Shown here: positions 7,300-12,432 of the stretch, in pieces
How positions within the stretch are numbered: position 1 is the stretch's first letter
How the letters are laid out: the number at the start of each line of letters is the position of its first letter
From: Pseudogymnoascus verrucosus
Taxonomy: Eukaryota
Strand: one strand, 5' to 3'
Assembly: GCA_001662655.1 (NCBI GenBank)
Contig: KV460224.1
DNA: 64,000 bases
Position numbers and translations under genes: made by a program
Notes under the pieces: model-generated
What the model saw: only the letters and a program-made list of their open reading frames with translations
What the model was told of the DNA's origin: nothing
Databases searched by the model: none

Positions 7300-10198
7300 T
7301 CAACCCACAACCCATGTCTTCTGAACTAGCTCAAAGTTCCAAAAGCAATTCATTTCCTCATTAGTTGACGACTTTCCCACGAAAAACCTATCCAGTTTAG
7401 ACCTTGTTGACGGATCCACCGTCGGGTCCTGTGGGCTTAGCTCGCCGTCTAGTCGGACATTGACTGTATCGTGAAATGTTGCATGTATCTCGTCCGGAGA
7501 TTCTGAGTGGACGTGGACAATTGCGGCGGCTACAATATCATTTGGGTCCATCGGGAAGCGGAAAATAATCCCTATCTTGTCCCCTTTAGGAAATTTCAAC
7601 GTCGGCTTAGACGGTTGGCCCGCATCTAGGAGACGTATGACTCTGTACTTCGTCTTTCCGTCTGTTATGGTCACCGTATCCCACGGAATTTCATAATATT
7701 TCCCTGTTGCATCTTTTGCTTCTGATTCATGTGGCTGCGAGTTTAGCTTGAATTCCATATCAAGTGTCAACAGAATCCCTGGTCGTGTGATTCGCAATTC
7801 AAGCTCGTCAACCGAGCGTGGCGTTACTCCACCCCCTAGTTCCTTTGGGTACACATCATTTGGTGCCCATCGCAACCCTGGAGTCAGCAGACGTGATGAC
7901 CTCAGAAAGATAAACTCAACCGGAATTACGCTCTGCTTCCGAATCCAGGCCTCCATTCTCTCTTCTTTCTTTACTTGCATTATCTCTTTTAGAGTGCCAG
8001 AATTGCTCGCAATATCTAGACTAGAGACGAATATTATGAGCCTGTCCGAATCTCGGGCTGTTGATCTGGCGGCTAACTCGTTCCATGTGGTAATCATATT
8101 CACCTTTTGGTCCAAAAAGCCCATGTATGTCGCGAAAAACCTTTGTTGCATCTGTCCTTTGATGCACTTGAGTAGAGAGAAGGATTCCGCGTATTGGCCA
8201 TGCGGCTTGGCTCTCCATGTGGCCATTGACTCCACTGATTCACTTGTAACTTCGAGAAAATCGTTAAGCAGGTGAAGGAGCTTGTCCTCTTTTATCCCCC
8301 CAGGAGAGCTAAACAGCCCCATGGGGTTCAAACCCTGAAAACCTTTTAGTTTAAGAGTACCGTTCAACTTGCACCAGTTGTTGAAAGAACGGAGTTTTCC
8401 AATGTAAAATGAGCTGAATTGATACAGCCCGTCCAGCTCATCGAACTCAAATGCTTCGACTATGTCTACCAGACGATTCCCTACCTTGACCCGTAGGTGG
8501 TAGGTGCTTCTTTCGCGCTCGAGAAAGGTCCAGCATCGGCCTTTCCATGACGACAGCTCTAGACGCAGGAAAATCTCCGTAACTGATGCAGTACCTGGTA
8601 AGCTCTCTAGCCCAGCGTCCAAGGCGATAGTGTAGAATGAGCCAGAGTAGACATCATTGATTTGAGTGATGGCGATCTTGCGAGACTCCTTAATATGCGG
8701 TATGCATATTGTATCCATCCATAGATTTACCTTTTTATATTGACCGCTAGCTTTCAGAGCATCGAGCCAATTGTCTATATACTCTTCAGCCATAGGCTCC
8801 ATAATTTCTCGCATCTCTTTCACTTTCTGGAGTGCTAGAGGGTCAACTCCCGTGGATTCCATTCGTTTTTGGGCCATGTCCATTGGATTAAGGAAGCTAT
8901 TCATCCAATCGGGCTTCGCGTGCTTGAGAGGCCATTCCTCGAGCATGCGAAATATTTTCAAGAGTTCGCAGTATGGCAAGGCGTTTCCATGTGGGTTTCC
9001 CAGTCCATCAGACCATACATGGGAGATTGCTATATAATGGGGAACTTCGCCGGAATGAGTCACCTCGGTGTTCAGCTTGCCATCAGGCCCCAGTGATAGG
9101 GAAACAATTGGTATTTTCCCTTGCATGATCAGATCATGTAAGCTCTGTGAGTCTATTTTGACGTCGCCGCATGTACCGTCGCATTCTGGTGTATGTTTTG
9201 TCCGATAGGTGCTTTCGTCTTCCATAGTAAACGTTTCACATATTCTGCCCGTGCATTTTGTGTGACTGTGGCGTCTGTCCAAGTGTGTATCTATCGCAGA
9301 GGCATAGTACGGGGTCAATGGGGTAAGATAGTGGAATGATTTCGGTGCCATCGACTTGCACCAGCCGGCAATTTCCAAACACTTGTCGTGGTCGCCTAAC
9401 CGTTCAGTGGCATTCGGGTATATTTTCCAATACCAAATCATGGCTGCTTCTATCGTACGTGCCAGAATCTGCACTGATGCGGAAACTCGAAGGAGAAGAT
9501 GTCTGTCCTTGTGCCAGCGCCTCTCTAACATTTGTTCGAGGAGCCCCTTTGTTTTATTGAGGCGCTGAGACCGCTCAGCTTCTGGAAGACTGTTCAAATA
9601 ACCTGCCCAGCTCGATATATAGCCGTTCAGCTTTGTCGTACATAAGATCCATTCACCTTCAGCTCGCTCTACTACGAGCTCAGAAGTTGGTATTGGCTGA
9701 TCAAAAGCGAGAACATCATTGATAGCTCCAAAATAATACTTGTTCTGGACAAAGATTGCAGCTTCTAAGTCTGGATAGTTCGAGAAATCATAGATTTCCT
9801 TTCTAGCAGACCAGAGTCGATCCTCATCGATGGATCTACACCTTTCCTGCTTGCGAGACCCGAGTTTAAGCTTCAGCTTCAGCTTCTCCGCTAGAGGTGT
9901 CAATGTTTCATCTAAAACATCCATTAGCCGTAAACACTTTGCCATGATATAATATCTACTTACTAGGATCCATAAGGTGGTCTTTCCATTCGTTAAACTC
10001 AGTGCCTGTATGTAGACGTTGATCTTCCAGCCAGAAGAAGGGAAAATCATCAAAATCTTTCTCTGAAAGACGATACCGTGCGCTATTCTTTGGTTGGATA
10101 ATCAGCGGCAGCTGAGCGGCATTGTAATCCTCCAATGTCAGCGCCGGAAAGTCTGGCCACGGCTTCTGCGACGAGGAGAATATCGGGAAATGATCCAT
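7300..10198 (-). CDS. Heterokaryon incompatibility (HET, PF06985-type) domain protein, about 948 aa
   Basis: Exons 10198-9964 and 9911-7300, with intron 9963-9912 (GTAAGT..GCTAAT..TTTTAG) joining in frame. HET motifs 'YIAISHVWSDGLGN', 'LWMDTICIP', 'AITQINDVYS' and 'WKGRCWTFLE' are present, preceded by a His/Cys cluster (HSHTKC...C...HTPEC..C). Confidence 0.9.
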
Positions 10199-10771
10199 AT
10201 TACAAGTTAGACACGCTTGTTTCGCAGAGCTTTCCTTTGACTGATGTAGTGCTGAGATCGTCGGAGTTGTGGCAAGGCTTATTTTGTTCCAGACAGTCGC
10301 TGGTGTCATAGATGGGTGGGTGTTGGTGCTCTTTAAGAAAACGGTGTGGGGCTATTAGGCCTCAGAGATTACCCCGCAGCCCTATCTATGCTCAAGGATA
10401 CAGCAGCTGAGAATTTAATCACGTAAGAAACCCAAGACTAACTTTACATGGCTATCTATCCTAGTTATAGTCTTCTGCAGCTTATGCTGTACTGCTACCT
10501 TACTTATTACTTGCGAAGGATCCGGTAAGCGGAGACTCAGCCGCGCGGTGCCAACGCTTAACGACGATTGGTTAGAAGCGCGATTGAGGGTCGGAACGTG
10601 TCAAAGTGTCAGGGTGCAGCCAGGCCCTTAGTTCCAGGGCTCGGAACGTTAGCGGACCGGAGTAACCTACGTTGTAAACATCTAGGCAACAGAATGTCAG
10701 GGTAGAATTTAAATACCCTATTCATAATTCTCCGCCTATACTGTAGCCCCTTACAAAACCCAACTTTAGTT

Positions 10772-10815
10772 AAGCCTCTACTATCAAGCCTCTACGATTA
10801 AGCCTCTACGATAAG
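10772..10815. repeat. 14-bp tandem repeat x3 (AAGCCTCTACGATT) in the divergent intergenic region
   Basis: AAGCCTCTAC starts at 10772, 10786 and 10800. Confidence 0.85.
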
Positions 10816-11141
10816 TCGTATACCCTTCGCTGTTGCACTTTGACCTCCGGCTTACTTATGTGGCGGAAGCTTTTAGGTCCCGTGACTACGGGGGCTGAAC
10901 GGGGCTGAGTTTCAAGGTCCCCCTGTAATCTGGACAAAGTACGCTAGTACCCAATCCATTCATAGTCGTGATGGGCTTACTATTTACTAAATGTTTTGAA
11001 TTTCTTGGAGTTTCAACACGTCTTCATCCTTCTGCTTTCCTGTCTATAACGCTGTAGTCACCATCAGCTACAGATTTGATATCCTATCATCATTGACATG
11101 ATCCTGCAGTTGTGATTGATCTTTCCATATCGGATCCAACC

Positions 11142-12432
11142 ATGGCTCCTGCACCGTTCTCCCAGTTATTTCCAAGACGGGACTTCGACACGAACGCACC
11201 CACTGAGAGTTTTGCCAGCGAATGGGCAAATCCTTCAAACTATGCTTTCACTATCCTTCTTCTCCTTGGAGGAGACGTGATTTCCCGGGCTCTTGCACAA
11301 CTCGCAGGTGGTCCCGTGACACCAGTAGCATTCTCCTTTGGTATGTAGCGAAACAATACGTGCCATTATCTCTGCTGACAGCCCTATAGGCTGGGTCTCC
11401 TATGCCACCACAGCAATTTGCAGTGCTGTCGGTGAAAATAAACTCATGCCAGGCGCAGACTGCCCGTGTGAAGTTATTAATGGAAAGAACGGCTACGTCC
11501 GAAGCAACAACTCCTTTGTTATTGGCCGTATAGTGCGTGACTATGAGGCATGGATGGGCGCGTCTGTGCATAAGATCACTCAGTCTCTTATTGATGCCAG
11601 CTGGAAATACCAGAAGGACATAGCAGAAAATGACTGCGCCGGTTCCGGCGCAGAGGTCCCTCGACCAAGGCAAGCTGGCTTGGTAGTCAGCTTCTGGGAA
11701 CCGAGTCAGACGATTGAAGCCGGCAAGCCGGGGCATGATATTCTTCACTGGTCGGGCGTGATAACGACTGCGTTCCAGCTAGGTATTGCAGCCATCCCGT
11801 GTGGTATTTGGGGAGATTGGAGTGTGCTGCTCATCACGGGCGGGGCATCAGTTCTATGTTACAGTATGGGAGCGCTATCTCAGTGGGGCGTTGAGAAATG
11901 GGCGTGCAGACGCCTCAATAAACGGAGCAAGAAGAACTTCATCCTGACCCGTGGAAACGGCGCACAGCATGCCATTGCGATCATCAGTGGCGGACGTGGG
12001 TTGGACTTGGAGGATTTGGCAACGGGGTTCGACAATCTGGATGCGCCTTCAATTACGCTCTTCGCGCAACTGGCCACCATATTCCTGGGACTTCTCTGGA
12101 TTGTATTACTCATCACGAGCTCAGCAATAACGGACTCTGCATGGTTTTTGATTGCGGTTGGAGGAGTCGGTATTCTGCAGAATATGTTTGTTGCTGGATG
12201 GAAACGACATCCTCAGGCGCTGGGGGTACCAATTGAATACCTCGACGTTGTAGGAGACGTGAAGGTTATGAACACATTACTGGCAGTGGAGAGAAAATAT
12301 GAAAAGTTGGGACAGAGTATGATCGGATCATTCTTCCCAGGCGATCTTAGAGATAATGAAAAGAAGCTGTGGGAAGATGTTGCAGCAGAGTGGGCGGAAA
12401 AAAAGAGATCAGAGGGTGTAAATAAGGCCTAA
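11142..12432 (+). CDS. Uncharacterised fungal multi-pass membrane protein, about 413 aa
   Basis: Exons 11142-11340 and 11390-12432 (intron GTATGT..CTGAC..TAG). Segments 'WANPS', 'LLLLGGDVISRALAQL', 'PVAFSFGWVSYA', 'LTRGNGAQH' and 'LDLEDLA' resemble a widespread hypothetical fungal family. Several hydrophobic helices. Confidence 0.85.

Follow-up and report, generated by a model that had tools for sequence, protein, structure and literature searches.

The 64,000-nucleotide stretch analyzed here, referred to below as the window, belongs to contig KV460224.1 of the Pseudogymnoascus verrucosus assembly GCA_001662655.1 and contains two adjacent genes, A and B, which encode a HET-domain protein and a membrane protein, respectively. 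An earlier note made from the letters alone had described them as a divergent pair sharing a region of about 940 bp; the genes are indeed head-to-head and the ATG-to-ATG gap measures 943 bp (10199..11141, without strand). Gene A, on the minus strand, is read as join(10198..9964, 9911..7300), with exon 1 at 9964..10198, a GT-AG intron of 52 nt at 9912..9963 and exon 2 at 7300..9911 encoding the bulk of a 948-amino-acid (aa) stand-alone HET protein with no internal stop. Gene B, on the plus strand, is read as join(11142..11340, 11390..12432) and encodes 413 aa: exon 1 (11142..11340) holds the first hydrophobic segment (aa 34-52) and, past a 49-nt intron (11341..11389), exon 2 (11390..12432) holds the remaining hydrophobic segments and the conserved polar motifs. 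Contigs of relatives skip exactly both introns (joints 9911-9964 and 11339-11389), and both genes are therefore spliced as read. These contigs, used for the junctions alone, come from X4 and X10, runs that belong to two separate studies and sample a related organism about 91% identical to the window; they were the informative two of four runs, the other two giving short fragments only. For A and B alike, the nearest named proteins are from Pseudogymnoascus.

Pfam finds in A the HET domain (PF06985) and no other, in agreement with the earlier description of a 948-aa HET protein lacking NACHT and WD40 domains; no NACHT, NB-ARC or WD40/ANK/TPR match of the kind expected from an HNWD/NLR-type architecture was obtained. 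The match is weak (E 4e-5), probably because a long helical insert separates HET motifs 1 and 2 in the structure model. The score of 24.4 bits lies over the gathering cut-off of 22.5, and the three motifs are found at residues 373, 476 and 534. The HET core (aa 371-543; 8518..9036 on the minus strand, coordinates from the exon model) accordingly carries YIAISHVW, WMDTICIP and WKGRCWTFLE, the last spanning residues 534-543. The Glu that the earlier note saw retained in this last motif, Glu543, is invariant in 44/44 aligned relatives, and the invariant HET residues in this alignment are S375, H376, W378, W476, D478, W534, R537, W539, T540 and E543. HET domains are cell-death effectors remotely related to TIR domains, and Glu543 may correspond to the TIR catalytic Glu. 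In a fold search made with the full-length 948-aa model, no structure, TIR-like or other, matched significantly (best Z 5.7, root-mean-square deviation (rmsd) 5.2, 139 residues aligned). The domains of A are ordered as an N-terminal helical domain, a Cys/His motif, the HET core with its helical insert, a further helical domain and a C-terminal beta-rich domain. Members of this HET subfamily are about 750-950 aa long, with the core placed behind the N-terminal helical domain and the invariant residues C263/H295/C298/C303/H318/C326. This Cys/His cluster (9169..9363, minus strand), just N-terminal of the core, marks the subfamily and is a putative metal-binding site.

Hydropathy averaged over 110 B sequences shows six peaks forming three hairpins, as expected of the 413-aa multi-pass membrane protein proposed earlier. 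The remaining five segments lie at about aa 62-80, 188-206, 211-229, 295-313 and 319-337. The hairpin loops are short and free of Lys/Arg, and three large charged segments carry 11, 9 and 13 Lys/Arg. Since Lys/Arg-rich segments of membrane proteins face the cytosol (the positive-inside rule), we read the large charged segments as cytosolic. The structure prediction, a confident one (pLDDT 83, pTM 0.77), interleaves the beta strands of these three segments. Conserved polar motifs are EKW (235-237), TRGNG (253-257) and LEDLA (273-277), and N106, W109, R113, R116, D117, D183, Q196, E235, K236, T253-G257, E274, N331, R339 and E367 are kept in at least 85% of sequences. The large loops hold conserved polar and aromatic residues that may constitute a ligand or catalytic site.

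B belongs to a large, undescribed membrane-protein family without Pfam model or fold match. A word search returned 699 matches, the family comprises 1,377 clusters at 50% identity, and named members come from several ascomycete classes and the yeast Lipomyces. Pfam assigns B to no family and finds no recurrent family among 104 members, the most frequent match being a weak NDUF_C2 in 5 of them. Foldseek with the B model returned nothing at E<=0.001, a wide fold search gave no match above background (best Z 5.7, rmsd 2.6, 53 residues aligned), and a B profile run against the sequences of solved structures had a single match at E 0.83. Profiles of gasdermins, HeLo/MLKL, SLATT and the transmembrane (TM) proteins Cap, Ths and Pyc gave no family match, NCBIfam gave scattered weak matches only, and the nearest ESM Atlas clusters are unnamed eukaryotic hypothetical proteins. 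Membership in SLATT was rejected, as one stray SLATT_fungal match (E 0.021) among 21 long members did not recur, and so was an internal repeat among the three hairpin units (hhalign probability <=14%). One pattern scan of low sensitivity for prokaryotic relatives yielded 9 candidates, none confirmed. Two family members carry additional elements: P0225 has a short C-terminal TPR stretch and P0343 an insert of SAP-like repeats.

The proposal that B is the dedicated partner of a HET gene came with a check set in advance, namely whether B homologues lie beside HET genes more often than by chance. A metagenome scan confirmed 93 B loci, the best 80 of which represent 75 distinct loci and 45 clusters at 90% DNA identity. 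Twelve of the 45 clusters, with neither flank reaching 1.5 kb, were excluded, leaving 33 usable. A HET-type open reading frame (ORF) lies within 8 kb of B in 26 of these 33: Pfam alone at E<=0.01 identifies 23, and a profile built locally from the family of A adds three (E 4e-66, 3e-47 and 9e-19, against Pfam E of 0.065, 0.09 and 0.018). The HET density of the P. verrucosus genome (at least 32 matches in 30.2 Mb) predicts a chance of 1.7% for a HET gene within 8 kb. At 26/33 against about 2%, the attempted refutation failed, and genomic context strongly supports B as a dedicated partner. The sample is biased toward B genes with two peptide patterns and its members are not phylogenetically independent, so the family-wide adjacency rate may differ.

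In four of the seven HET-less clusters, at least one flank is shorter than 2.5 kb. When each flank had to reach 5 kb, 12/15 clusters were HET-positive (10 by Pfam alone), a binomial p of 1e-6 even at a 20% null, although relatedness overstates this value. Grouping at 60% protein identity left 13/18 groups positive; it ran on 32 rows, with L038 (a miss with 72 bp upstream) omitted. Under relaxed settings, 23 loci that were short or lacked HET were searched for remnants of it; the two matches (E 0.032 and 0.29) were not counted. The nearest HET gene is <=2 kb from the B match in 22/26 positive clusters, and the two genes are arranged divergently (15), convergently (6) or in tandem (5), which rules out a fixed head-to-head layout as a conserved feature. 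A search for a promoter motif common to 16 divergent gaps, the 943-bp region included, found no k-mer above shuffles. In 6/26 positive loci at least two HET genes are near B, and whole cassettes have been duplicated, in the order B, HET, B, HET, HET in L054 and B, HET, B in the L058 group. The other neighbors vary from locus to locus.

Four long B-containing proteins were found, three with HET and one with hexokinase. The three B+HET models, P0363, P0364 and P0365, match Pfam HET at E 0.034, 3e-14 and 2e-5. P0364, available as a protein model only, reads as B-linker-HET, and its HET groups with the HET gene beside B in L056 (support 99). In L075, its closest relative among the B genes, there is no intron and a comparable tail ends in a stop. 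Taken together, B adjoins HET genes, mostly of one subfamily, far above chance, in a cassette that has been duplicated, re-oriented and apparently fused.

One could nevertheless suppose that A and B have no functional link, and that B merely dwells in HET-rich variable regions where adjacency is inherited as synteny. HET genes do cluster non-randomly with lineage-specific genes according to the accessible parts of PMC10684091 and PMC10197012, and the composition of the metagenome sample noted above leaves room for inherited order. The close spacing across four different layouts, the strong bias to one HET subfamily, the joint duplications, the differing other neighbors and the 12/15 fully flanked clusters all argue otherwise, and we hold this explanation to be very improbable. 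Conversely, we are highly confident that A and B are functionally coupled.

The P. verrucosus genome itself holds two B genes, and both face a HET gene, with gaps of 943 and 932 bp. The second B gene is 48% identical to the window B; its HET neighbor (Pfam E 6e-12) was not retrieved by a search with A and belongs to another HET lineage. This second pair (G000:C51:~51700-55900; L003/L004) includes a 619-aa HET protein. It is tail-to-tail with a large ORF resembling a polyketide synthase-nonribosomal peptide synthetase (PKS-NRPS), with a 2,583-aa open frame and its family read from motifs; a 366-aa ORF that matches F-box-LRR weakly lies close by. The other 30 HET neighborhoods of the genome, covered up to 10 kb each, contain no B (0/30). 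In the reverse test, made in this genome only, one of two A-type HETs has a B, and 1/31 A relatives checked is the same protein as one of the retrieved B loci. Within the genus, 13 of the 15 named B proteins listed, out of 40 main-cluster members, have an A orthologue at the consecutive locus tag, one of the 13 being identical to the window B and hence not independent. Of the two misses, one is a 213-aa fragment whose contig measures 1.5 kb, and the other has no A listed. The consecutive tags within the genus are synteny alone and not independent evidence.

A quick tree of 64 HET cores places 25/30 B-linked cores with A, versus 1/29 background HETs of the genome; the remaining 5/30 fall in four further lineages. 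Partner type is scattered on the B tree (15 changes, against a mean of 15.1 when shuffled), and B and HET identities across loci are uncorrelated (Mantel rho 0.035, p 0.37, n=23; rho -0.10, n=19 without near-copies). L039 illustrates this point: it is the closest outside relative of A (63% over the core), yet its B is only 45% identical to the window B. With partners swapped in this way, a co-evolved interface becomes somewhat less likely than a link through a shared small molecule. On the same B tree the window B has an Aspergillus fumigatus protein as its nearest neighbor (66%), and the Lipomyces protein nests among metagenome loci with HET neighbors; patchy inheritance or transfer of B is possible.

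The earlier note had also raised allorecognition, in which A/B would be a vegetative-incompatibility locus whose haplotypes diverge, in the manner of het-c/pin-c or het-B. A HET gene with an adjacent partner is a common layout of het loci (PMC10197012 and PMC10890737, as far as their accessible text goes), and across the genus A has diverged by a mean of 19.9% and B by 8.8%, so that A evolves about 2.3 times faster. The A and B distances to 12 other genus assemblies nevertheless co-vary (rho 0.83), both A and B are about 99% identical to their counterparts in the two nearest genomes, and these assemblies, which represent about one strain per lineage and thus a thin within-species sample and a weak test of haplotypes, show no divergent haplotypes. 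Most HET genes are moreover not het genes, with 4/132 in Podospora in the available part of PMC10890737. Given the exchange of partners over the B tree and the lack of any observed divergent haplotype, an allorecognition role is not supported, and we give it very little weight.

The best reading of these data is that A and B form a two-gene HET-coupled defense or regulated-cell-death module that recurs across fungi. Within it, we tentatively favor, as plausible rather than probable, B as a membrane effector acting through a HET-made messenger. By this proposal A would be a variable sensor-enzyme whose non-HET domains detect a cue and whose TIR-related HET core would then make a small molecule derived from nicotinamide adenine dinucleotide (NAD). 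The cytosolic domain of B would bind this molecule, and B would then open or disrupt a membrane. A conserved B beside interchangeable HETs that keep the putative catalytic Glu, several of them at 6/26 loci, is most simply taken as a variable sensor-enzyme feeding one effector, and the scattered partner type, uncorrelated identities and multi-HET loci favor a diffusible link. We also count for the messenger-effector proposal that B is conserved within the genus (81.6-99.8% identity), that the non-HET domains of A drift (64-100%) and that its HET core is held (85.6-99.5%), changing least of all parts of A in the distant assemblies, with Glu543 invariant.

The suggested logic would be that of bacterial TIR/cyclase plus transmembrane-effector systems. 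In Thoeris type II, CBASS and Pycsar, one or more variable TIR-type enzymes stand beside one conserved membrane protein, sometimes with several enzymes per effector. The resemblance of A/B to these systems is an analogy of working only: PADLOC matched 0/31 B family members to known defense effectors and no prokaryotic B locus was confirmed. It is a bolder and rather doubtful suggestion that B founds a large fungal family of messenger-gated effectors which, with the Cys/His HETs, would be a eukaryotic immune system running from TIR-type enzyme to membrane effector.

The closest precedent is het-B of Podospora anserina (Bh/Bp), for which we draw on the accessible part of PMC10890737. As in A/B, a stand-alone HET protein has a conserved adjacent partner that is more conserved than the HET, orientation varies, a paralogue sits beside an unrelated HET and several HET lineages are used. 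In contrast, B is a 413-aa multi-pass membrane protein and Bp a PII-like trimer of about 120 aa; adjacency is 26/33 in our biased sample versus about 5% of PII-like homologues; and, unlike for het-B, no divergent haplotypes of A/B were seen in the 12 other genus assemblies. In that pair the partner acts as a trigger, and B could, as is proposed for Bp and Bh, be an upstream membrane trigger or guardee that senses an outside cue or is its target and activates HET by direct contact, with HET executing death. The shared signature just listed and the fusion models that put B and HET in one chain agree with this, and over-expression of the HET domain alone is reported as sufficient to kill in the part of PMC12881547 available. 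Set against it are the lack of B-HET co-phylogeny, the recruitment of HETs that belong to five or more lineages and differ in their flanking domains, and the very short presumed-outer loops of B, which leave little surface for an external ligand. On balance we consider a trigger or guardee unlikely, if still a serious contender.

Several further points weigh against the effector proposal or the module as a whole. The genomic pattern does not single out an effector, because Bp shows the same pattern as a trigger-type partner, and no enzyme activity is established for any HET domain, their mode of killing being described as unknown in PMC10890737. B has no similarity to the PADLOC defense effectors. 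The clade of A-type HETs is weakly supported (77-84 in the quick tree), and saturated divergence could have erased a real B-HET co-phylogeny. In P0363 and P0365 two tandem genes may have been merged into one model, which would still place B beside HET in two further named fungi. Three of the 15 fully flanked B loci (L035, L036 and L047) have no HET gene, and an A-type HET with a 919-aa open frame (L111, G000:C94:8700-18699, ORF 3547-6303) lies in a 10-kb stretch without B.

These last observations also bear on a toxin-antitoxin arrangement, in which B would be an antidote that keeps HET inactive or clears away what it makes. The tight linkage of the two genes, their joint duplication and the high conservation of B would fit such a role, and its many invariant polar residues could form a catalytic site. 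Against it, L111 together with 29 other HET genes of this genome has no B nearby, and B is in turn present without HET at the three loci just named. We judge an antidote improbable.

Other fungal systems share parts of this organization. The stand-alone HET proteins TOL, PIN-C, HET-6 and VIC6/7 (names as in PMC10197012) resemble A in having a HET core without NACHT/WD40, and the LRWAP motif downstream in A resembles, by our own reading, the PSWSW-type motif in the available text of PMC10890737. Unlike in those proteins, the core of A starts about 370 residues in, behind a helical domain and the Cys/His cluster, and A has no known incompatibility role. The fungal gasdermin/protease clusters (HET-Q1/HET-Q2), in the partial account available, are likewise two-gene death modules with a membrane-acting component; A/B differs in having no protease and in that B is an integral helical membrane protein with no gasdermin Pfam match. 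A HET gene with a dedicated neighbor is thus already known, and the partner family B is undescribed. No multi-pass membrane partner of HET genes is mentioned in the passages of open-access papers that were consulted, and the supplementary HET-neighbor tables of PMC10890737 might list such genes; five locus tags and accessions of relatives gave no literature match.

Few domains of filamentous fungi are as abundant and as variable as HET, and the accessible parts of PMC10890737 and PMC10197012 state that its mode of killing and its roles outside incompatibility are unknown. A conserved partner family that travels with a defined HET subfamily offers a minimal two-gene system in which to address HET enzyme activity, messenger and execution. 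If the proposal is true, a messenger-gated B would supply the missing executioner and a read-out for HET chemistry. Work on A/B also defines the unnamed membrane-protein family to which B belongs.

Some neighborhoods of B deserve mention individually. In L036, a 1,931-aa ORF without Pfam match (8569-14361, minus strand) is convergent with the HET-less B and is possibly another type of partner. In L047, B lies between genes for a STE-like transcription factor and a formin with no HET within 8 kb, and B can thus sit in a housekeeping neighborhood. Defense-type genes near B encode a ZNFX1-like helicase (L020), a TPR protein (L035) and an ANK-TPR protein (L067), and HET-ANK and ANK genes are near B in L020, L063 and L079. 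In L016, a fragment resembling the B N-terminus (13405-13617, minus strand) is directly upstream of a HET gene that has a full B on its other side.

Finally, the earlier note had described A and B as intact amid decayed neighbors. Both genes are open and spliced, and this part of the description stands. To the right, tail-to-tail with B, GT-AG splicing of a TRI12-like major facilitator superfamily (MFS) transporter gene (Pfam TRI12/MFS; 14699..~12710, minus strand, four introns) gives an open 588-aa protein, so that this neighbor is apparently intact and the description fails on this side. In the left flank (about 1400-7300) no Pfam-recognizable gene was found among the ORFs tested, which shows a lack of recognizable genes and not decay as such. 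Indices of repeat-induced point mutation (RIP) are not elevated across A and B; the strongest RIP-like dinucleotide skew in the window falls in the 1-kb bin at about 35001-36000 (composite index 1.0). Farther along the window, at 45202-50097 and 54466-55848, lie an APH-like kinase ORF, a dynamin-like gene and an ADP-ribosylglycohydrolase gene.

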